From the UHGV virus genome UHGV-1514873: a DNA stretch of 60,731 nucleotides; one strand, given 5' to 3'. A model generated the notes under the pieces. That model made no database searches. It had not been told where the DNA came from and was given only the letters and a program-made list of their open reading frames with translations. Source of the DNA: a virus. A program made the position numbers and the translations under genes. Numbering within the stretch: position 1 is the stretch's first letter; each line of letters begins with the position of its first letter. Of the stretch, positions 16,504 to 36,165 are shown one piece after another.

Positions 16504-19449
16504 ATGACAGACATTACAGCCAATGTTGTAGTGAGTATGCCTTCGCAACTCTTCACTATGGCGCGTTCTTTTAAAGCCGTAGCCAATGGCAAAATTTATA
16601 TCGGTAAAATTGACACTGACCCGGTAAATCCTGAAAACCAGATTCAGGTTTATGTAGAGAACGAAGACGGTTCTCACATTCCTGTTTCGCAACCAATAAT
16701 CATTAACGCTGCTGGATATCCGGTATATAACGGACAGATTGCCAAATTCGTAACCGTGCAAGGCCATTCTATGGCTGTTTATGATGCGTATGGTACACAG
16801 CAGTTCTATTTTCCGAATGTGCTGAAGTATGATCCTGATCAGTTACGACAGCAATTAGAAGACCCAGATGGAGCGAATAAATACCCAAAACTTCAGATAG
16901 CAAGATGGAGAGACAGTTATGATGTAAGAGGTTGGGGGGCTATTGGTGATGGTGTTCATGATGATACATCAGCTCTATCAGAATTACTTTCTGTTGCAAC
17001 AGGTGGTGAAAAGATAGATGGGCGAGGGCTTACTTTTAAAGTATCAACTCTTCCAGATGTCAGTCGATTTAAAAATGCTCGTTTTTTATTTGAGAGAATA
17101 CCGGGTCAGCCTCTTTTTTATGCTTCTGAAGATTTTATCCAAGGAGAGTTATTTAAAATTACAGATACACCGTGGTACAACGCCTGGACGCAGGATAAAA
17201 CGTTTGTATATGACAATGTCATCTATGCGCCTTTTATGGCTGGAGACCGCCATGGTGTAAATAACCTCCATGTTGCATGGGTTCGCTCAGGAGATGACGG
17301 GAAGACCTGGACAACGCCGGAATGGCTTACAGATTTACATGAAAACTATCCCACAGTTAACTATCACTGCATGAGTATGGGGGTTGTCAGAAATCGCCTT
17401 TTTGCTGTAATTGAGACGCGGACCGTGAGCGGAAATAAACTGCAGGTTGCAGAGTTGTGGGATCGCCCAATGAGTCGCAGCCTTCGCGTTTATGGTGGTA
17501 TAACGAAAGCAGCAAATCAGCAAGTCGCTTATATTCGCATTACTGATCACGGATTATTTGCTGGTGATTTTGTCAACTTCTCAAACTCTGGTGTTACAGG
17601 TGTTACCGGGAATATGACGGTGACTACTGTCATTGATAAAAATACTTTTACAGTTACGACGCAAAATACCCAGGATGTGGATCAGAATAACGAGGGTAGA
17701 TACTGGAGTTTTGGTACATCATTTCACTCGTCACCATGGAGAAAAACCAGTCTTGGAACTATTCCTTCTTTTGTTGACGGAAGCACTCCTGTTACTGAGA
17801 TTCACAGTTTTGCGACGATTAGCGATAACAGTTTTGCTGTTGGCTACCATAATGGTGATATTGATCCACGCGAGCTTGGGATACTCTATTTCTCTGATGC
17901 TTTCGGTTCTCCTGGTAGCTTTGTTCGCAGACGCATACCTGTAGAATATGAGGCGAATGCATCTGAGCCATGTGTAAAATATTATGATGGCATTCTGTAT
18001 CTGACGACCAGGGGGACATTAAGTACTCAACCCGGTAGTTCATTGCACAGAAGCTCTGATTTAGGTACATCATGGAATTCTCTTCGCTTCCCAAATAATG
18101 TTCATCACTCAAACCTTCCTTTTGCCAAAGTTGGCGATGAGCTGATTATTTTTGGCAGTGAGCGCGCATTTGGTGAGTGGGAAGGAGGAGAACCTGATAA
18201 CCGTTATGCAGGAAATTATCCAAGAACATTTATGACCAGAGTTAACGTCAATGAGTGGAGTCTGGATAATGTAGAGTGGGTTAATGTTACTGATCAGATT
18301 TATCAGGGCGGAATAGTTAACTCTGCGGTTGGTGTTGGTTCAGTTTGTATCAAAGACAACTGGCTGTACTACATTTTCGGTGGGGAAGACTTTCTAAACC
18401 CATGGAGCATAGGGGATAACAACAGAAAATATCCTTATGTTCACGATGGTCACCCGGCTGATTTGTATTGTTTCAGGGTGAAAATTAAACAGGAAGAATT
18501 TGTTTCAAGGGATTTTGTCTACGGAGCCACTCCTAACAGAACGCTTCCTACTTTTATGTCGACGTCAGGCGTGAGGACGGTTCCTGTACCCGTTGATTTC
18601 ACAGATGATGTTGCCGTCCAGTCACTGACTGTCCATGCCGGTACATCAGGACAAGTTCGCGCGGAAGTCAAACTTGAGGGTAATTACGCCATTATTGCGA
18701 AGAAAGTACCGTCTGATGATGTTACCGCTCAGAGATTAATCGTTAGCGGCGGTGAAACAACGTCTTCAGCAGATGGCGCAATGATAACGTTGCATGGTTC
18801 CGGAAGCAGTACTCCACGTCGCGCGGTATATAACGCACTCGAACATCTTTTTGAGAACGGAGATGTTAAACCTTATCTTGATAATGTAAATGCTCTTGGT
18901 GGTCCGGGAAACAGGTTCTCGACAGTTTATCTTGGCTCCAATCCTGTGGTTACCAGTGACGGAACATTAAAGACAGAGGCGGTCTCTCCTGACGAAGCAT
19001 TGCTGGATGCCTGGGGTGACGTCAGGTATATCGCTTATAAATGGCTGAACGCTGTCGCTATAAAGGGGGAAGAAGGGGCGAGGATACATCATGGTGTAAT
19101 CGCGCAGCAACTTCGTGATGTTCTTATTTCTCACGGACTCATGGAAGAAGAAAGCACAACATGCCGCTATGCCTTTCTTTGCTATGACGATTATCCCGCA
19201 GTATATGATGACGTCATTACTGGCCAAAGGGAAATACCGCTGACTGATAATGACGGGAGCATCATTGTTGATGAGGATGATAATCCAGTGATGGTAATGG
19301 AAGACATCATTGAGCGCGTTGAAATAACGCCAGCAGGATCTAGATGGGGGGTCAGACCTGATCTCTTATTCTATATCGAGGCGGCATGGCAGCGCAGAGA
19401 AATAGAAAGAATAAAAGCTAGGTTAGACTTAATAGAAGGGAAGCACTAA
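16504..19449 (+). CDS. tailspike: P22 gp9-type head-binding domain + sialidase (endosialidase-like) domain + C-terminal chaperone-like domain
   Basis: N-terminal ~120 aa match P22 tailspike ([11 protein letters not shown]...[22 protein letters not shown]); two Asp-box motifs SGDDGKTW and SSDLGTSW; 981 aa. Confidence 0.85.
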
Positions 19450-19602
19450 ATGTTTCGTTGGCGTCAAAAATATGAACTGCTCACATAAAGAAGTAAGTAC
19501 ATTGGCAAAAAACATTGACGTCAACGAAATTAAATATAAAAATTTAAATGCTTTTTAATGACAAGAAAAGTAACTAGTGGTAAAATAACGTAGGATACTA
19601 AT

Positions 19603-20316
19603 ATGTCAAGACTCAAGACTCAAGACTCAAGACTCAAGACTCAAGACTCAAGACTCAAGACTCAAGACTCGTTTTCCGTTGATGATAATGGGTCAGGTAA
19701 TATTTTTGTATGTGGAGATCTTGTAAATAGCAAAGAGAATAAAGTTCAGTTCAATGGAAACAATAACAAACTTATTATAGAAGATGATGTTGAGTGTCGA
19801 TGGCTTACCGTAATATTTAGGGGTGATAATAATTACGTAAGAATACATAAAAACAGTAAGATTAAAGGTGATATTGTCGCAACAAAAGGTTCAAAAGTTA
19901 TTATCGGTAGAAGAACGACAATAGGTGCAGGTTTTGAAGTCGTCACTGATAAGTGCAATGTTACAATTGGCCATGACTGCATGATAGCAAGAGATGTTAT
20001 TTTGCGTGCATCAGATGGGCATCCTATATTTGATATTCATAGCAAAAAAAGGATTAATTGGGCAAAAGATATCATTATATCTAGTTACGTATGGGTAGGG
20101 AGAAATGTCTCTATAATGAAAGGGGTATCTGTTGGAAGCGGATCTGTCATTGGGTATGGGAGTATTGTAACTAAAGATGTGCCATCTATGTGTGCAGCAG
20201 CCGGTAATCCAGCAAAAATAATAAAAAGAAATATAATATGGGCAAGAACGGATAAAGCGGAGCTAATTAGTGATGACAAGAGATGCTCCAGCTATCATGC
20301 GAAGCTCACGCAATAA
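19603..20316 (+). CDS. neuO: phase-variable polysialic acid O-acetyltransferase NeuO-like (hexapeptide-repeat acyltransferase)
   Basis: ATG followed by 9 x AAGACTC (3 x RLKTQDS) then left-handed beta-helix acyltransferase body. Confidence 0.85.
   Translation: MSRLKTQDSRLKTQDSRLKTQDSFSVDDNGSGNIFVCGDLVNSKENKVQFNGNNNKLIIEDDVECRWLTVIFRGDNNYVRIHKNSKIKGDIVATKGSKVIIGRRTTIGAGFEVVTDKCNVTIGHDCMIARDVILRASDGHPIFDIHSKKRINWAKDIIISSYVWVGRNVSIMKGVSVGSGSVIGYGSIVTKDVPSMCAAAGNPAKIIKRNIIWARTDKAELISDDKRCSSYHAKLTQ
19608..19670 (+). repeat. 9 tandem copies of heptanucleotide AAGACTC inside 5' end of neuO
   Basis: Counted directly: 63 nt = 9 perfect units. Confidence 0.95.
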
Positions 20317-20753: not shown

Positions 20754-21917
20754 TTACACATCATTAGTACCTTCCTTATTTTTTGACTGGGACAAATTTG
20801 GGACCGATGGGTTCAGGATCGAGTCTATTTGCCGTGCGTGTTCGGTAAGGTGATTAGGTGCAAGGTGAGCATATCGACGAACCATTTCGATAGACTCCCA
20901 GCCTCCCATTTCCTGTAACACTGACAACGGGACTCCGGCTTGAACCAGCCAACTTGCCCAGGTGTGTCTCAAGTCGTGAAATCTGAAATCATCAATACCA
21001 GCCCGTCTCAGCGCCGCTTTCCAGGCTGTGTTTGCGTCATACCGCATCTTCCTTACTGTTGGCGCTTTCGTTCCGTCTGGTTTGGTACAGCTTTCCTTGT
21101 ACACAAATACCCAACGGTGATGATTCCCGATTTGTTTTTTCAATACGCGACATGCAGTATCATTCAGCGCAACGCCAATTGCGCGGTTTGATTTACTCTC
21201 TTCCGGGTTTATCCATGCCACCCGGCGCTGCATATCTATTTGTTGCCATTCAAGGTTGATGATGTTCGAGCGTCTTAAGCCTGTTGCCAGTGCAAATTCA
21301 ACAACAGACTTTAATGGCTCCGGACATTCATCAATCAGCCTTTGTGCTTCATGGGGCTCCAGCCAGCGGATCCGTTTATTCTTTGGTTGAGGCACTTTAA
21401 TAATTGGTGCCTTATCCAGCATTTTCCATTCACGCTCTGCGGCTCTTAGTAGGGCCTTTATAAATGAAAGATGCGTAGCCTTCGTTGCAACGGACGCTGG
21501 TTTTGGCGTGTATTCTGGAACAGGTTTCCCTTTTTTTCTGCATGCTTCTGCCCTGAGTTTCCAGTTTTCCTCATGACGCCGGTTCGTCATTTTCTGCATT
21601 GCTGAATAAATTTTTGATTCAGTAATGTCTCTTAGTTGCATTCCTGCGAAATGTTGAAGCCAGAATCCGATCCGGCTTTTGTCATCGTCCAGTGATTTTT
21701 TATGTGCTTTCTCTTCAAGCCACCTGACACACGCTTCCTCGAACGTTATATCAGGTATTTCACCAAGTTTGCTGACCCGCCATGCTTCAGCCTTTAGCTT
21801 GTCATGGAGTTCTGTCGCCTGCCTTTTGTCCTTTGTTCCAAGAGACTGTTTAAATCTTTTACCGTTCGGCAATGTGAAACTGGCGTACCATATTTCACCT
21901 CTGCGGAAGAGTGACAT
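20754..21917 (-). CDS. int: tyrosine integrase, P22 Int-like
   Basis: 387 aa, near-identical to P22 integrase as recalled ([46 protein letters not shown]...). Confidence 0.95.
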
Positions 21918-24729: not shown

Positions 24730-25404
24730 TTAGGCTTTGATTTTGTATCTTCTTGGTTTTCCTGAGAAAATCACTGTACCAATTATAGAGCAATTACCGT
24801 TGATCTTAATGTAAGGCTCAGGCCAGTTTGGGTTTAACGCTTTGAGATAACGCTGTGTCCCATCTTCTATCAACCTTTTGAAGGTGGTTTCGCCTGTATC
24901 GTGCATCAATGCAATAACGTCGTCACCGTGGCAGGCAGGTACTTCAGGATCGACAAAAATCATGTCTCCCGGGCGGTACTCATCAATCATTGAATCACCT
25001 ATCACCCGCAAGATATAAGTCATTTCCCCACAGGGTACAGGGCAGGGATACGTTTCTGCTGTGCTCAAATCAACCTCAGAATATCCAACTTCTTTCCATG
25101 CTCCGGCCTGTACCCATGATATGACAGGGACTAATGTGATTTGTTTATTAGTGATTGAAACATCAGGTTTTTTTGTGATGTTCGTTGTCTGGTGTTCTTG
25201 ATCGAGCCATCCGACAGGCAGGTCGAAACATTTTTCGATGTGTCGTGCCATGCTGTCACCGATATTTTTAGTAGCACCATCTCCCATAAACCTGCTGGTC
25301 TGGGTTGGCTCGCGATCAATCATAGTGGCAAAGGAAGAATTCCCGCCAACACCATCTCTCAGTTTTCTGGCGTTAGACCGCCGGATGTCATGGATTGTTT
25401 TCAT
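24730..25404 (-). CDS. CI-like repressor (HTH + LexA-like S24 peptidase domain)
   Basis: 224 aa; C-terminal S24-type segment (VIGDSMIDEYRPGDMIFVDPEV); divergent from cro. Confidence 0.8.
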   Translation of the reverse strand: MKTIHDIRRSNARKLRDGVGGNSSFATMIDREPTQTSRFMGDGATKNIGDSMARHIEKCFDLPVGWLDQEHQTTNITKKPDVSITNKQITLVPVISWVQAGAWKEVGYSEVDLSTAETYPCPVPCGEMTYILRVIGDSMIDEYRPGDMIFVDPEVPACHGDDVIALMHDTGETTFKRLIEDGTQRYLKALNPNWPEPYIKINGNCSIIGTVIFSGKPRRYKIKA

Positions 25405-30259: not shown

Positions 30260-31255
30260 GTGACCGTGAGAGCACTACTGACCCCTGAAATAGCCCCGCG
30301 TATGGGGATCGTATTGTTCAGACCAGGTTCAGAGCTGATGCCCCTGTTTATGCAGGGGCGTGTACTGCTGGAGCCTGAGCCGGAACGTTATTCATCTTTC
30401 GCCAGTGGTGCCGTTCCCGCGGCATCACAACCGCTGGCGGATGATCCTGCTGTTCGGGCCGTGTTCCGCAATGAGGCAGTGATCCGTCGTGCTGGTGGCG
30501 TGGAATGTCTTGAAAGCTGGTTACTTCGTGAAAAAGGCTGCCAGTGGCCTCATTCCGACTGGCACAGCGAGAACATGACCACAATGCGACACGCTCCGGG
30601 CGCAATCCGTCTGTGCTGGCACTGTGATAACCAGCTGCGCGATCAGTTCACGGAACGGCTGGAATCAATGGCAACGGATAACTGTGCCCGCTGGGTGTTG
30701 TCTGTTGTGCGTCGGGATCTCGGTTTTGATGATAGTCACGTTGTGACAATGCCGGAACTGTGCTGGTGGCTGATTCGTAATGACCTGGCGGATGCCTTAC
30801 CGGAAAGTGCAGCCCGTAAGGCACTGAGATTACCAAAGCCTGTTGTGCCGTCTGTCACCCGGGAAAGTGACCTTGTGCCTTCGGTTCCTGCCACCAGCAT
30901 CATCCAGGATAAGGCAAAAAAGGTGCTGGCGCTGAAAGTGGATCCGGAGTCGCCGGAGTCTTTTATGTTACGCCCAAAACGTCGCCGCTGGGTTAATGAA
31001 AAGTACACGCGCTGGGTTAAGACACAGCCGTGTGCATGTTGTGGAAAGCCCGCTGATGATCCCCACCACCTGATAGGCCACGGTCAGGGGGGAATGGGTA
31101 CAAAAGCGCATGACCTCTTTGTGTTGCCTTTGTGCAGAAAGCATCACGACGAGCTGCATGCGGATACCGTGGCATTTGAAGAGAAGTATGGCTCCCAGCT
31201 GGAGCTGATATTTCGTTTTATCGATCGCGCGCTGGCAATTGGCGTGCTGGCCTGA
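30260..31255 (+). CDS. DUF968-like protein with C-terminal Cys/His cluster
   Basis: CACCGKPADDPHH...CRKHHDELH motif; start ambiguous (GTG 30260/30266 or ATG 30302). Confidence 0.55.
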   Translation: MTVRALLTPEIAPRMGIVLFRPGSELMPLFMQGRVLLEPEPERYSSFASGAVPAASQPLADDPAVRAVFRNEAVIRRAGGVECLESWLLREKGCQWPHSDWHSENMTTMRHAPGAIRLCWHCDNQLRDQFTERLESMATDNCARWVLSVVRRDLGFDDSHVVTMPELCWWLIRNDLADALPESAARKALRLPKPVVPSVTRESDLVPSVPATSIIQDKAKKVLALKVDPESPESFMLRPKRRRWVNEKYTRWVKTQPCACCGKPADDPHHLIGHGQGGMGTKAHDLFVLPLCRKHHDELHADTVAFEEKYGSQLELIFRFIDRALAIGVLA

Positions 31256-31272
31256 TTTTGTGGAGAAAGTTG

Positions 31273-31650
31273 ATGCGTGATATTCAGATGGTTCTGGATC
31301 GTTGGGGGGCATGGGCGGCGAGTGATAGTTCTGGGGTAGACTATTCGCCTATAGCTGCTGGGTTTAAAGGGCTTCTTCCCTATACAAGCAAAACACGTCA
31401 GGCTTGTTCAGATAGTGATGCATTAATTATTGAAGGTTGTCTTGCTCGTCTAAAGCAAAAAAGACCTGAAGAACACTCGCTTCTTGTTGCCCATTACCTA
31501 TACGGTATCTCTAAAAGAAAGCTCGCCAAGGCTCGTAAAAAGGATGAGAAACTAATACGCATTGAGATACAGATGGCTGAGGGGTTTATTGATGGCTGCC
31601 TATCGATGTTGGAAATTAGTCTAGAGATGGACCCCGAAGTTAAAGATTGA
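31273..31650 (+). CDS. Q: late-gene antiterminator Q (phage 82 type)
   Basis: MRDIQMVLDRWGAWAASDSSGVDYSPIAAGFKGLLP matches 82-type Q N-terminus; ATG 31273 with GGAG RBS. Confidence 0.8.
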   Translation: MRDIQMVLDRWGAWAASDSSGVDYSPIAAGFKGLLPYTSKTRQACSDSDALIIEGCLARLKQKRPEEHSLLVAHYLYGISKRKLAKARKKDEKLIRIEIQMAEGFIDGCLSMLEISLEMDPEVKD

Positions 31651-31656
31651 TTATTG

Positions 31657-31680
31657 AAGCCCGATTACTCGGGCTTTTGT
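31657..31680 (+). terminator. Rho-independent terminator after Q
   Basis: aagcccg/attact/cgggctt perfect 7-bp stem plus T-run. Confidence 0.6.
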
Positions 31681-32684
31681 TCCACATCTCGAACATAGAG
31701 AATTACTGCTGACTTAATGTCACCATCGACGTGTTTTGCGTTAATGCTCAAATGTACAGGCTTTCTTTCCCACTCAGCTCGCTGCAATGCTTCTTTGTTT
31801 CCGGATTCATCAAGGAAAACATCCTGAACTACGCAGGTTAGACGTTGGTCGGTATCTACGCGTCGGACCTTAACTTTGAAACTCTCTGGGTCAGTATTAT
31901 TGACTTCTTCAATTCGGTAAATACCATCAATCCTCATTTCTGATGAACGTCTACGAGCATTCGTAACCAACTCTTTCGCCATTTCAGAATCAATAGTAAC
32001 GCCATCAATTTGAGCGTTATCTGAACGCACAAAGGATTTGACCATTTGGGTTTTAGCGTCATACGACATACGGTCCATGTTATCGAGAAGTGGTTTTTCC
32101 GCAATCATTTCTGAAATAACCCGCAGGCGTTTAGTTTCTTGCTCGCTCATGATCTGCATAGTCCGGAGATGTTCTTTCTCTCCATCCTTAGCAATTTCTG
32201 CAAGGCGAATATCTTTGCGGTTGTCCAAGAACCGTTTAAATACTGTTACTCCGCCCCAGATGACTGCTGCGCCGAGAACAGTAAACATGATCTCAGTTGC
32301 GTTCATTTTACCAACAAGTTCCTGTGTGAGTTTGGTTAAAAAGCCATCAATGTTGATTTCTACTATTGAAGAACCCTGTTCTACCGTAACTTCTATTTCT
32401 AGGGCATCAAGTTCTTCTTTGGTCAGTTTGCGGACGTCAGGGACACCGTACTTGGCAAGGGCATATGATTTGTTGATTTGAGCTTGCATTTCAACAAATC
32501 CCTTCATAACTGAAGGTGTTAGCGATCTGTTGAATTTTTCACCGGTTAATCTGATGGTAAGGTTTGGCCATCCGTTGAAACTTAAACTGTCAGGTAAACC
32601 ATAACCATCAAGATAGCTTTCAAGCAAATCGAAGGCTTGCTGCTCAGATTCAATGTCTACATGAATCTCATCAAACTTATCCAA
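31665..32684 (-). CDS. unknown 339-aa protein with one central hydrophobic helix (moron between Q and late operon)
   Basis: AT-rich, opposite strand to all flanking phage genes; TTG start 32684 with GAGGA RBS; no family recognised. Confidence 0.6.
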   Translation of the reverse strand: MDKFDEIHVDIESEQQAFDLLESYLDGYGLPDSLSFNGWPNLTIRLTGEKFNRSLTPSVMKGFVEMQAQINKSYALAKYGVPDVRKLTKEELDALEIEVTVEQGSSIVEINIDGFLTKLTQELVGKMNATEIMFTVLGAAVIWGGVTVFKRFLDNRKDIRLAEIAKDGEKEHLRTMQIMSEQETKRLRVISEMIAEKPLLDNMDRMSYDAKTQMVKSFVRSDNAQIDGVTIDSEMAKELVTNARRRSSEMRIDGIYRIEEVNNTDPESFKVKVRRVDTDQRLTCVVQDVFLDESGNKEALQRAEWERKPVHLSINAKHVDGDIKSAVILYVRDVEQKPE

Positions 32685-33003
32685 AAGTATGTCCTCATTC
32701 TAAGCCAACTGTCACCGTGAGGTTTGGCAACGCCTGCTTTATTTTTCGTTTTAAGTTGTGTGGCAAAAAAATAATGGAAAAACAGATAAAAATCACTAAC
32801 GCGGTCCGCATTTTCTAGATTACTGTGTTAAGAGTGGTTACTTCGCCACACAGCTTAAACCCGCCGCTGAGCGGTTTTTTTGTACCTGTAAACTTGGTGC
32901 AGTACAGTAAACACGCTGGTGGTCGTGAATACTGACTTTTTATCTTGCTGGCTTTTTAGACAAGAGTTATTGGTATGTCATGTTAACCAGAAGGGAAAAA
33001 GAC

Positions 33004-33207
33004 ATGCTAAAACAGCAAGATATGACAGAAACCGCCGCCGTAGTCCTTCATTTCTTACCTGCTGACAAGTGGGTAACGCCACGCATGATGACGAGAACTA
33101 CCGGAGTAAGCGAAGCCCGGTGCCAGTTAATACTGACTCAGTTAGTTCTGGCGGGTCTGGCGAAGGATAACGGCGGGTATGGGAATAAATTCAGACGCTG
33201 CCAGTAA
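33004..33207 (+). CDS. hypothetical small protein, first gene of late operon
   Basis: 67 aa from ATG 33004 with RBS aaggga. Confidence 0.45.
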   Translation: MLKQQDMTETAAVVLHFLPADKWVTPRMMTRTTGVSEARCQLILTQLVLAGLAKDNGGYGNKFRRCQ

Positions 33208-33357
33208 TGGCGGTTTCCTGCTGTGAAAATGGGCGGCTGGTGGGTGTTGGTAGCACCTGCCAGCCATTCGCTCATGCTTACTGGTCACAAGCGAACCACG
33301 GCCCACTGCTTTAGCGCAAAAGCAGAGTGAGCCTACCAGAGTTACGCTTACTGATCC

Positions 33358-34410
33358 ATGAAAAATACTGTAAAAATAAACAGTGTTGATTTAATCAACG
33401 CTGATTGCCTGCATTTTATTCAGTCCCTGCCTGATGATTCCATTGACCTGATTGTTACCGATCCGCCTTACTTCAAGGTGAAACCTAACGGTTGGGACAA
33501 TCAGTGGAAAGGGGACGAAGATTACCTTAAGTGGCTGGACCACTGTCTGGCCCAGTTCTGGCGGGTGTTGAAACCTGCCGGAAGCCTTTACCTGTTCTGT
33601 GGGCATCGCCTGGCATCTGATATTGAGATCATGATGCGTGAACGTTTCAACGTGCTTAACCATATCATCTGGGCGAAGCCGTCCGGACGTTGGAATGGGT
33701 GTAATAAAGAAAGTCTGCGCGCATATTTTCCTGCCACAGAGCGCGTTCTGTTTGCTGAACATTACCAGGGGCCATATCGCGGCAAAAGTGACGGCTATGC
33801 GGCAAAAGAAAGGGAACTCAAACAGCACATAATGGCACCGCTGATATCGTATTTCAGGGATGCTCGTGCCGAACTGGGTATAACGGCAAAACAAATTGCC
33901 GAAGCCACAGGTAAGAAAAATATGGTTTCCCACTGGTTTGGTGCCAGTCAGTGGCAGTTGCCGAATGAGGCTGACTATCGGAAGTTACAGGCACTGTTTT
34001 CCCGTATAGCGGCAGAGAAGTTTCAGGAACAACAACTGGAACAACCACACCACCAGCTGGTGGCATCTTATGATTCACTGAATCGCAAATATTCTGAATT
34101 GCTGGATGAGTTTAAATCTCTCCGGCGCTATTTCTCCGTATCAGTCTCCGTGCCTTATACCGATGTCTGGACGCATAAGCCCGTTCAGTTCTACCCGGGT
34201 AAACATCCGTGCGAGAAACCGGCGGATATGCTCCGGCAAATAATCAATGCCAGTAGTCGACCTGGTGATCTGGTTGCTGATTTCTTTATGGGATCCGGTT
34301 CCACAATAAAAGCAGCAATGGCGCTGGGGCGTCGGGCGTTAGGTGTTGAACTTGAGTCAGAGCGGTTTAATCAGACGGTGAAAGAGGTAAGTGAACTGGT
34401 GGGGAAATAA
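33358..34410 (+). CDS. DNA methyltransferase, beta-class (motif IV DPPY before motif I), orphan
   Basis: LIVTDPPYF near N-terminus and DLVADFFMGSGSTIKAA near C-terminus. Confidence 0.8.
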   Translation: MKNTVKINSVDLINADCLHFIQSLPDDSIDLIVTDPPYFKVKPNGWDNQWKGDEDYLKWLDHCLAQFWRVLKPAGSLYLFCGHRLASDIEIMMRERFNVLNHIIWAKPSGRWNGCNKESLRAYFPATERVLFAEHYQGPYRGKSDGYAAKERELKQHIMAPLISYFRDARAELGITAKQIAEATGKKNMVSHWFGASQWQLPNEADYRKLQALFSRIAAEKFQEQQLEQPHHQLVASYDSLNRKYSELLDEFKSLRRYFSVSVSVPYTDVWTHKPVQFYPGKHPCEKPADMLRQIINASSRPGDLVADFFMGSGSTIKAAMALGRRALGVELESERFNQTVKEVSELVGK

Positions 34411-34486
34411 TTCTGGTGGCCACGTTGCGTGGCCTTTTTATTTCCAACACAGCACCCGCAAATATCGCGAGGTGAGAGATGACGAA

Positions 34487-34822
34487 ATGTCTCATAACCC
34501 AAATACCTGGCCGGACTGGCTGGAGTTGTTTCAGAGCTGGTGGCGTGGAGACACACCGCTGGGTGCAGTGATTATGTCGATCGTTATGGCTGGTTTGCGC
34601 ATCGCCTATTTTGGCGGTGGTGGTGGCTGGAAGCGAAAAACGCTCGAGATTTTGCTATGTGGCGCTCTGACGCTGACCTTTGCATCCGCTCTTGAATATG
34701 TCGGATGGCCTAAATCGCTTTCTGTTGCCATTGGTGGTGGCGTGGGGCTGATCGGTGTCGATGCTATTCGTGGGGCTGCAATGCGAGTAATCGGTAACAA
34801 ATTTGGTAGCTCGAAGGAGTAA
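34487..34822 (+). CDS. holin, lambda S-like class I
   Basis: Three hydrophobic segments, charged C-terminus; internal ATG 34487 chosen. Confidence 0.7.
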   Translation: MSHNPNTWPDWLELFQSWWRGDTPLGAVIMSIVMAGLRIAYFGGGGGWKRKTLEILLCGALTLTFASALEYVGWPKSLSVAIGGGVGLIGVDAIRGAAMRVIGNKFGSSKE

Positions 34823-34825
34823 TTT

Positions 34826-35302
34826 ATGCAGGCACTAAATTCCCAGCGTAAAGCTTTCCTGGATATGGTGGCATGGTCAGAAGGAACGGATAACGGGCGA
34901 CAACCGACACGTAACCACGGTTATGATGTTATTGTTGGTGGCGAACTGTTCACTGATTACTCCGATCACCCTCGCAAACTTGTCACGCTAAACCCCAAAC
35001 TCAAATCAACAGCTGCCGGACGTTACCAGCTTCTTTCACGCTGGTGGGATGCTTACCGTAAACAGCTTGGCCTGAAAGATTTTTCTCCAGAAAGCCAGGA
35101 CGCTGTAGCTCTGCAGCAGATTAAAGAGCGTGGTGCTTTACCGATGATTGACCGCGGCAGTATTCGTCAGGCAATCGACCGTTGCAGCAATATCTGGGCG
35201 TCGTTACCTGGTGCAGGTTACGGTCAGTATGAACATAAAATCGGTGACCTGATTGCCCGATTTAAAAAAGCTGGTGGGGTAGTAAATGAGGCTGAGATAT
35301 AA
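34826..35302 (+). CDS. R: endolysin, lambda R-type lytic transglycosylase
   Basis: Near-identical to lambda R as recalled (QRKAFLDMVAWSEGTDNGRQPTRNHGYDVIVGGELFTDYSDHPRKLVTLNPKLKSTAAGRYQLLSRWWDAYRKQLGLKDFSP). Confidence 0.95.
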   Translation: MQALNSQRKAFLDMVAWSEGTDNGRQPTRNHGYDVIVGGELFTDYSDHPRKLVTLNPKLKSTAAGRYQLLSRWWDAYRKQLGLKDFSPESQDAVALQQIKERGALPMIDRGSIRQAIDRCSNIWASLPGAGYGQYEHKIGDLIARFKKAGGVVNEAEI

Positions 35303-35859: not shown

Positions 35860-36165
35860 TTATTCGTAGTTGTCACCAGGGAAGTATTCCTGAAACTTTG
35901 ATTTTGGGAGCTGGGTTTTCGCGAAGTTCGCAAGCCTTCCTCTTGTAAGCATGTAGTCACACCCACCTTCTTGTTTGAGAAGGTCACCAGCTAATGTCCG
36001 ATACACAACGTCACTTCGCAAAATTTCAATGGTGGAATTCCTGATGAGAAATGTTTCACACATCGGGCATCTAATTAACCAAGCGGTATCACGGTTCTGC
36101 CAGGTCGCATCTGAATTGCAAGCCGGGCAGCATTTCTGATCTTCTTGTCCTATGACCATTGTCAT
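35860..36165 (-). CDS. small Cys-rich (zinc-ribbon-like) protein, moron
   Basis: CCPAC...CPMC motif pair; opposite strand between lysis and packaging genes. Confidence 0.5.
   Translation of the reverse strand: MTMVIGQEDQKCCPACNSDATWQNRDTAWLIRCPMCETFLIRNSTIEILRSDVVYRTLAGDLLKQEGGCDYMLTRGRLANFAKTQLPKSKFQEYFPGDNYE

Follow-up and report, generated by a model that had tools for sequence, protein, structure and literature searches.

A mobile prophage cassette beside the Q antiterminator gene encodes a predicted single-pass membrane protein of a large uncharacterised family

The UHGV virus genome UHGV-1514873, a stretch of 60,731 nucleotides that is called the window here and was read on one strand from 5' to 3', carries a gene of 339 codons on the minus strand immediately after the Q antiterminator gene of a prophage. 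The best reading of our analysis is that this gene travels on a mobile prophage accessory (moron) cassette and encodes a protein, predicted to cross the inner membrane once, that belongs to a large uncharacterised family. We regard the segment as a cargo cassette because 1,146 bp of the window are swapped for about 11 bp in related phages and because the same slot holds other, unrelated cargo. As to function, the sequence and its context point to a protein that would be made in the lysogen and would guard the cell, and hence the prophage, from other phages; we consider the case for this function to be evenly balanced.

The cassette between Q and the late-promoter block

Comparison by blastn with the Stx2 phage 1720a-02 and with PhiR5_1 showed that similarity to the window ends at 31632, within the last Q codons, and restarts at 32779, and that both phages have only about 11 bp in place of the intervening 1,146 bp. 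Because of this gap in phages with an empty slot, the unit was defined as the cassette 31633-32778, which comprises the 3' tip of Q (its last six codons or so), a hairpin, the gene for the protein of 339 amino acids (aa) and 94 bp upstream of that gene. The features of the region are as follows.

31258-31650, plus strand: Q antiterminator gene, 130 aa (Pfam Phage_antitermQ, E=1.1e-52), the left neighbour, which converges on the 339-aa gene
31633-32778, no strand assigned: accessory (moron) cassette of 1,146 bp, delimited by the blastn break points 31632/32779, junction alignments and low G+C content (GC)
31656-31677, both strands: GC-rich hairpin of 9 bp between the convergent Q and 339-aa genes, with the stop codon of the 339-aa gene in its loop
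31665-32684, minus strand: coding sequence of the 339-aa protein, the same as RefSeq WP_000357056.1, a member of PHROG 6191
32685-32778, minus strand: cassette-borne, AT-rich upstream region of 94 bp, partly kept in Enterobacter and Entomohabitans homologues in alignment
32692-32696, minus strand: GAGGA ribosome-binding site, 7 nt 5' of the TTG start (32682-32684), found by direct sequence reading
32779-32882, plus strand: late-promoter-like block, directly after Q in the empty-slot phages, forming the right edge of the cassette

The 339-aa open reading frame (ORF) is a real gene and not a chance ORF, since full-length homologues (320-350 aa, 26-98% identity) occur in many genera. Its TTG start was taken from the ORF list and from direct sequence reading, and the product is 38.8 kDa. 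No upstream in-frame ATG offers another start. The RefSeq entry WP_000357056.1 ("hypothetical protein", E. coli Ecol_224) is the same protein with the same start, and its DNA differs from the window by one synonymous base. At the ribosome-binding site, TAGAATGAGG is kept in the homologues that adjoin Q, as seen by alignment of the upstream regions. The gene has a GC of 0.38-0.44 (overall about 42%), against 0.50-0.59 in the DUF968 gene and others 5' of Q; Q itself is at about 0.45-0.49, and the methylase and lysis genes downstream are at about 0.50 or above. A preliminary description of the window had proposed an opposite-strand gene at the junction of Q and the late promoter, AT-rich and starting at TTG behind GAGGA, and all of this is borne out: the ORF, the RefSeq coding sequence with its identical start, the homologues and the cassette break points agree.

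The hairpin at 31656-31677 folds with -15.8 kcal/mol on the plus strand and -16.4 kcal/mol on the minus strand (z about -4.3), and none of 200 shuffled sequences was as stable. It is likely a bidirectional terminator, with a U-tract on the plus strand only, and a simple terminator scan did not flag it. The gene's own promoter presumably lies within 32685-32778.

To the right of the cassette, the late-promoter-like block consists of the GCGGTCCGC palindrome, then TGTTAAGAGTGGTTACTTCGCCACACAGCTTAAA, then a terminator (32863-32882; stem 32863-32875 followed by a T-run), and on its minus strand the GCGGTCCGC palindrome with a T-run also scores as a terminator. Phages from at least six genera keep the block beside a Q-type antiterminator. 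For this class of Q, it probably comprises PR', tR' and the Q-utilisation site, a role assigned by analogy because its position matches that of these elements in lambdoid phages (phi80 and P22 annotation). As judged from the sequence, the 339-aa gene is placed between Q and the putative late promoter, outside the late operon; it is located 5' of the late-promoter/terminator block and therefore interrupts the early-right transcript and not the late operon.

This placement overturns one statement of the preliminary description, namely that the gene occupies the slot where Stx phages carry stx. Cargo of that slot lies downstream of PR'/tR', is co-directional and depends on Q, whereas the cassette lies 5' of the PR'-like block with its gene on the opposite strand. 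In the relative 1720a-02, stx2A follows the methylase gene, downstream of the late-promoter block. Scans for tRNA genes and Rfam families over 31000-33600 and 31000-35000 gave nothing above threshold; tRNA genes, a typical feature of the stx region, are thus missing here.

The late-promoter block is conserved in many relatives, and the slot content varies. The slot is empty in 1720a-02, PhiR5_1 and vB_EcoM-720R4. In cdtI it holds two reverse genes, orf53 and orf54, of 147 aa and 313 aa (DUF6731) at 1960-3348 of our sequence L002, and in PhiR40_1 one reverse gene of 148 aa at 1724-2170 of L014, while in Ayreon and mEp460 the slot carries forward-strand genes. The Q-to-PR' slot may thus be a hotspot of unrecognised cargo in this phage lineage. 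The first gene after the PR'-like block is a 75-aa ORF (32980-33207, plus strand) that is kept in cdtI, mEp460, Ayreon and PhiR40_1; its counterparts are annotated as hypothetical proteins of 67-75 aa, and it has no Pfam or PADLOC match.

A prophage-borne family with one predicted membrane helix

The protein matches PHROG 6191 over almost its whole length (E=1.6e-152; residues 3-337 of 339, profile positions 2-337 of 338). The function of this group is not annotated, and membership is therefore silent on function. An exhaustive profile search at E<=0.001 yielded at least 1,517 clusters (representatives at 50% identity), of which 589 reached E<=1e-30. The matches are full-length and uniform at about 335 aa, nearly all clusters being 320-350 aa long, and the members with a named source are all called hypothetical. 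Hosts include Enterobacterales, Pseudomonas, Acinetobacter, Moraxella, Pasteurella, Halomonas, Vreelandella, Burkholderiales and Treponema. In E. coli the gene was found in 86 of 5,426 complete genomes, always in the chromosome and with at least 99% identity over at least 80% of its length.

Searches for a known family gave no usable match in Pfam, NCBIfam, PADLOC or the sequences of the Protein Data Bank (PDB), in accord with the preliminary description, which had recognised none. Nothing in Pfam exceeded its cut-off; the best score was that of FNIII-A_GpJ (18.6 bits against a cut-off of 27) in one of 29 diverse members. This domain was considered because the P. aeruginosa homologue adjoins gene J, and it was rejected as a chance match, being below the cut-off and confined to a single member. 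NCBIfam likewise gave no match above cut-off, the MetS matches being confined to the hydrophobic helix, and a profile search of PDB sequences gave no match. A Foldseek search of BFVD returned three full-length matches of low TM score, all to uncharacterised phage proteins, one of them with DUF6575; these were uninformative. Thus, profile and structure comparisons yielded no confident match to a structural or housekeeping phage protein, and PHROG 6191, without annotation, was the only sequence-family assignment.

An AlphaFold model built from 45 sequences (predicted local distance difference test score, pLDDT, 84.5; predicted template-modelling score, pTM, 0.74) comprises an alpha/beta domain at about residues 8-125, a long helix from residue 129 that includes the hydrophobic segment, a helical region at 151-220 and a beta-hairpin followed by a beta-barrel at 246-334. 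Mapped onto the window, the parts are as follows.

32310-32684, minus strand: N-terminal domain, residues 1-125, acidic (pI 4.5), alpha/beta
32235-32300, minus strand: predicted single transmembrane helix, residues 129-150, from hydropathy and a position kept across 236 members
31683-31949, minus strand: predicted C-terminal OB-fold beta-barrel, residues 246-334, preceded by residues 151-245 with the helical region and beta-hairpin

There is one hydrophobic segment only, with a Kyte-Doolittle maximum over 19 residues of 1.77 at residues 131-149. Its position is kept in 94% of 236 members, and the score is at least 1.6 in 71% of them. Position and hydropathy are kept and the sequence is not, as expected for a membrane helix. 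With this one segment of spanning grade, the protein qualifies as a predicted bitopic inner-membrane protein. The C-terminal half is charged. The central hydrophobic helix noted in the preliminary description is supported. The flanks of the helix contain on average 2.0 K+R residues on the N-terminal side and 3.8 on the C-terminal side, with net charges of +0.22 and +1.24, respectively, and the bias is seen in 71% of members. Such a bias is modest and favours a cytoplasmic location of the C-terminal side.

The most conserved motif, SLTPSVMKGF, is in the N-terminal domain, together with Q67 and G104-S105; the most conserved positions overall are G48, T56, M60, Q67, L87, E91, V101, G104, S105, R244, G254, A303, W305 and A326. 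Among 229 closer members, column conservation was equal in both halves. Homologues at the greatest distance still show a recognisable N-terminal half and helix, with drift in the C-terminal half. The N-terminal domain has no structural relative in the PDB. In the model, the C-terminal domain is a five-stranded closed beta-barrel that superposes on known OB folds.

A scan of genome contigs with the alignment of closer members gave 12 loci. The family was always found in prophages, without a conserved partner gene and in at least four unrelated positions, of which the commonest are directly after cI on the same strand and converging on Q. Relatives stand directly after a cI-type repressor gene (helix-turn-helix and S24 domains) on the same strand in Salmonella (including Typhi), Morganella, Acinetobacter, Pseudomonas and Treponema. 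In Moraxella phage Mcat17 the family gene follows an upstream gene that is probably a repressor gene, and Orf11 of E. coli phage phi458, next to CI, is a full-length distant homologue (hhalign probability 98%). Convergent genes right after Q, as in the window, occur in Enterobacter, Pantoea, Entomohabitans, Rahnella and Serratia. The cI-linked and the Q-convergent slots would both allow expression in the repressed prophage and predict a drop after induction. In P. aeruginosa the family gene is co-directional between tail genes I and J, and in Vreelandella it lies between large co-directional ORFs that resemble a Mu-type head module in their sizes and order.

In Acinetobacter-type relatives we also observed a conserved 100-aa ORF before the family gene and, on the same strand, a GGDEF-domain gene after it; this arrangement is lineage-specific. 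The positions in our sequences are as follows.

L012 5560-5862, L018 5550-5852 and L019 148-450: 100-aa ORF of Acinetobacter-type relatives
L012 7246-8193 and L018 7753-8700: GGDEF-domain gene of Acinetobacter-type relatives

Candidate functions and the surrounding prophage

The preliminary description had guessed at an abortive-infection or exclusion protein expressed from the prophage. At the level of prediction, this guess fits the cI and Q slots of the relatives and an outside listing. DefensePredictor (Science 2026, PMC13092281) lists WP_000357056.1 in its Table S10, "Predictions for 3,000 E. coli strains", on the sheet uncharacterized_clusters, with a mean log-odds of 6.55 (standard deviation 1.82, minimum 4.51, maximum 9.74), the strict cut-off being log-odds 4 (PMC13092281). 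The entry carries the flags "Putative novel defense gene" and predicted_defensive TRUE, and neither HHpred nor Foldseek tied it to known defence (PMC13092281). This listing is a computed prediction that draws partly on the same contextual signal as our own analysis. In that study 94 predictions were cloned, and 45% of them protected against at least one phage (PMC13092281); the protein was absent from the validated systems, whether sought by accession or by searching their sequences for its motifs (PMC13092281).

We propose a defence role because relatives occupy lysogeny-linked slots, the helix is conserved, the family is large, the protein is listed by DefensePredictor, and phi80 taiEcA provides a precedent as a lysogen-expressed opposite-strand defence gene in a Q-controlled region that is off in the lytic cycle (PMC11364771). 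In the lysogen, the 339-aa gene would be read from its own weak promoter, and during lytic growth early transcription through Q would run antisense into the gene and lower its expression; relatives behind cI would be co-produced with the repressor. The protein would span the inner membrane, with the acidic N-terminal domain in the periplasm and the helical region and OB fold in the cytoplasm, and may bind a phage component that reaches the membrane as the genome is delivered; this component would be the incoming DNA or else an ejected or tape-measure protein. Binding would block productive entry, that is, cause superinfection exclusion. Stopping the genome on its way through the inner membrane is the mechanism that we favour, tentatively and well short of calling it probable, because the protein is predicted to have sizeable domains on both membrane faces and because copies are tolerated inside late operons.

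Several observations weigh against a defence role and against this mechanism. PADLOC-DB v2.0.0 gave no match for the window protein, and only two of the 29 diverse members had one isolated weak match each (PDC-S02, 0.0014; Cas13d, 0.0039). The other cargo genes of the Q-to-PR' slot also had no PADLOC match and are not known defence genes. Literature searches turned up no paper that names WP_000357056.1 or PHROG 6191 and no functional data on these or on phi458, the coverage excluding Brenes & Laub 2025, and about half of the cloned DefensePredictor candidates failed validation (PMC13092281). The family alignment contains no catalytic-looking invariant residues. The predicted topology is derived solely from the modest flank-charge bias, and an N-out orientation would require an unusual step, the export of an acidic 125-residue domain that has no signal peptide. 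The closest OB-fold matches belong to periplasmic or secreted proteins and would suit the opposite topology, and the high pTM of 0.74 may reflect packing of the two domains against each other. The copies in P. aeruginosa and Vreelandella are co-directional within late operons, so that expression in the lytic cycle is tolerated there. Finally, a sigma-70 promoter scan and the alignment of upstream regions revealed nothing convincing, with weak matches only, for example TTGCCA-17-AATAAA at 32766-32738.

A close second among the explanations, and in itself a rather unlikely one, is abortive infection, in which the cytoplasmic OB fold would sense a phage protein or nucleic acid and the N-terminal domain and helix would oligomerise and damage the membrane, so that the cell is killed or arrested before progeny are released. 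The retention of the N-terminal half and helix in distant homologues whose C-terminal half drifts suggests a conserved effector with a variable sensor, but in the 229 closer members both halves are equally conserved. Abortive infection is also favoured by the DefensePredictor score and by the place behind cI, which is like that of rexAB, and convergent or cI-linked expression would turn the gene off in the lytic cycle of its carrier; co-directional copies in late operons, however, would endanger the carrier's own infection, and a lone membrane helix offers weak grounds for proposing a pore.

It is unlikely, too, that the protein serves lysogenic conversion or host fitness unrelated to phages by altering envelope physiology, stress tolerance or colonisation. 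Morons in such slots often encode traits of this kind, no known defence domain was found, and a membrane anchor with a domain on each side, whose OB fold is nearest to periplasmic metal-binding SilF and to sugar-binding toxin B subunits, would suit such a task. The hosts, however, differ widely in envelope and lifestyle (E. coli, Moraxella, Halomonas relatives and Treponema), the exclusively prophage-borne distribution argues for a phage-directed target, and DefensePredictor scores the protein as defensive.

We consider it improbable that the gene acts in the carrier's own lytic cycle, for instance in lysis timing, in membrane tethering of replication or assembly, or in blocking re-adsorption or re-injection. 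The gene adjoins the lysis cassette in the window, and its counterparts are co-directional inside tail (P. aeruginosa) and head (Vreelandella) operons; yet it is antisense to lytic transcription in the window, close viable relatives lack it, and the family occupies at least four unrelated positions and is linked to the repressor more often than to late genes. That the ORF is a chance or decaying one, as its TTG start, AT-rich foreign DNA and lack of a clear promoter could suggest, is refuted by conservation, given homologues of 320-350 aa with 26-98% identity across phyla, 86 E. coli genomes at 99% identity or more and a confident AlphaFold2 model, and we assign it a negligible probability.

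The defence role that we prefer could also take a more elaborate form, to which we give little credence: a new and very widespread single-protein immune receptor acting across the inner membrane. Its periplasmic domain, which has a novel fold, would sense the injection apparatus of the phage from outside, and its helix would signal to the cytoplasmic OB module. That module would then capture the incoming genome or trigger arrest, and the receptor would be prophage-borne from Proteobacteria to spirochaetes.

If the protein is anti-phage, it represents a new defence protein with at least 1,500 sequence clusters and without a recognisable relative among known systems, and it would affect phage host range and the outcomes of phage therapy in E. 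coli, Salmonella (including Typhi), Klebsiella, P. aeruginosa, Acinetobacter and Moraxella. Its architecture suggests a membrane-level mechanism, possibly at genome entry, a stage with few understood defence proteins. Should the gene show no effect on phages, it would be one more ordinary moron without a characterised role. The analysis also marks the Q-to-PR' junction as a candidate cargo hotspot of this phage lineage, where the reverse-strand genes of cdtI and PhiR40_1 are just as uncharacterised.

In the surrounding prophage, the gene order is integrase (20754-21917, minus strand), cI-type S24 repressor (24730-25404, minus strand), Q, methylase, lysis genes, HNH gene, terminase and structural genes, followed by a probable O-antigen modification cluster. 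The 339-aa gene had been described as the sole interruption of an otherwise co-directional genome. It is indeed reversed, but a second opposite-strand ORF is present in the right arm at 35860-36165. This ORF encodes 101 aa from an ATG start, contains CxxC...CxxC motifs and has no Pfam match. Its neighbours are the Rz-type lysis gene on one side and the HNH and terminase genes on the other, and phi80 has taiEcA in this position, upstream of the packaging module. The ORF could be another moron.

To the left, the plus-strand region 16504-20316 encodes a 981-aa tailspike with P22-type head-binding and endosialidase domains, followed by a hexapeptide-repeat transferase (19603-20316), and resembles the terminal part of a P22-like prophage specific for the K1 capsule. 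Because the tailspike region directly precedes the integrase gene of the prophage that carries the 339-aa gene, two prophages seem to lie side by side in the window. At the far prophage end, the minus-strand region 55473-59632 includes an Acyl_transf_3 acyltransferase gene (55473-56522), a GtrII glucosyltransferase gene (57246-58706) and a 309-aa ORF (58703-59632) that overlaps the GtrII gene, and it is probably an O-antigen modification cluster.

Comparison with known systems

The kind of element is familiar, probably a defensive prophage moron, and the protein is new, with no characterised relative and an N-terminal domain without a structural neighbour. Like phi80 TaiEcA and Gifsy-1 HepS, it is the product of a single lambdoid-prophage gene opposite Q-driven genes (PMC11364771, PMC13043305). 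TaiEcA, however, has 204 aa, is soluble and carries an Rx4H motif, and its gene stands in the late operon behind the lysis genes, whereas the protein described here has 339 aa, is predicted to be membrane-anchored and is encoded 5' of the late-promoter block. Homology to Tai was set aside (BLASTP E=9.2 against TaiEcA, phi80 orf63), as was a non-contiguous operon of the Tai type, since the gene is on the opposite strand beside Q but upstream of the late-promoter block. In TaiEcA itself (6366-6980 of L013, minus strand), the sequence RNDLAH is an Rx4H motif of the HEPN type, which suggests that Tai proteins and the HEPN protein HepS of Gifsy-1 (PMC13043305) may be of related kinds. The Gifsy proteins GiPD474, with an ATPase domain, and HepS, with a HEPN domain, were set aside as different kinds of protein. 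Tab (gp31 of JBD26), which has 83 residues and is encoded between terminase genes (PMC10884400), was rejected by size and position alone.

The OB folds of SilF/CusF, of the B subunits of AB5 toxins and of PriB, SSB and RecO resemble the C-terminal domain at the level of fold only, with identities of 2-17%, and this likeness does not distinguish a metal, sugar, protein or nucleic-acid ligand. The lactococcal protein AbiP, encoded on a Gram-positive plasmid, is a membrane-anchored, nucleic-acid-binding abortive-infection protein with an N-terminal anchor. The likeness to AbiP is one of concept alone, an anchor combined with a nucleic-acid-binding module.

As with lambda rexAB, many relatives are directly after cI on its strand, and the protein is predicted to be membrane-associated like RexB. 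RexB has four membrane helices. Here, in contrast to RexA and RexB, there is one gene instead of two, with one predicted membrane helix. Homology was rejected for RexA, RexB and P22 SieB (hhalign probability 0.1% each) and for P22 SieA (0.2%). HK97 gp15 and lactococcal Sie2009 are inner-membrane superinfection-exclusion proteins. The protein resembles these and P22 SieA in being a single prophage-encoded protein predicted to lie in the membrane and presumably read from a promoter of its own, and sieA, too, is an opposite-strand gene among late genes. Compared with SieA, the present protein is about twice as large and has sizeable domains on both sides of its helix.

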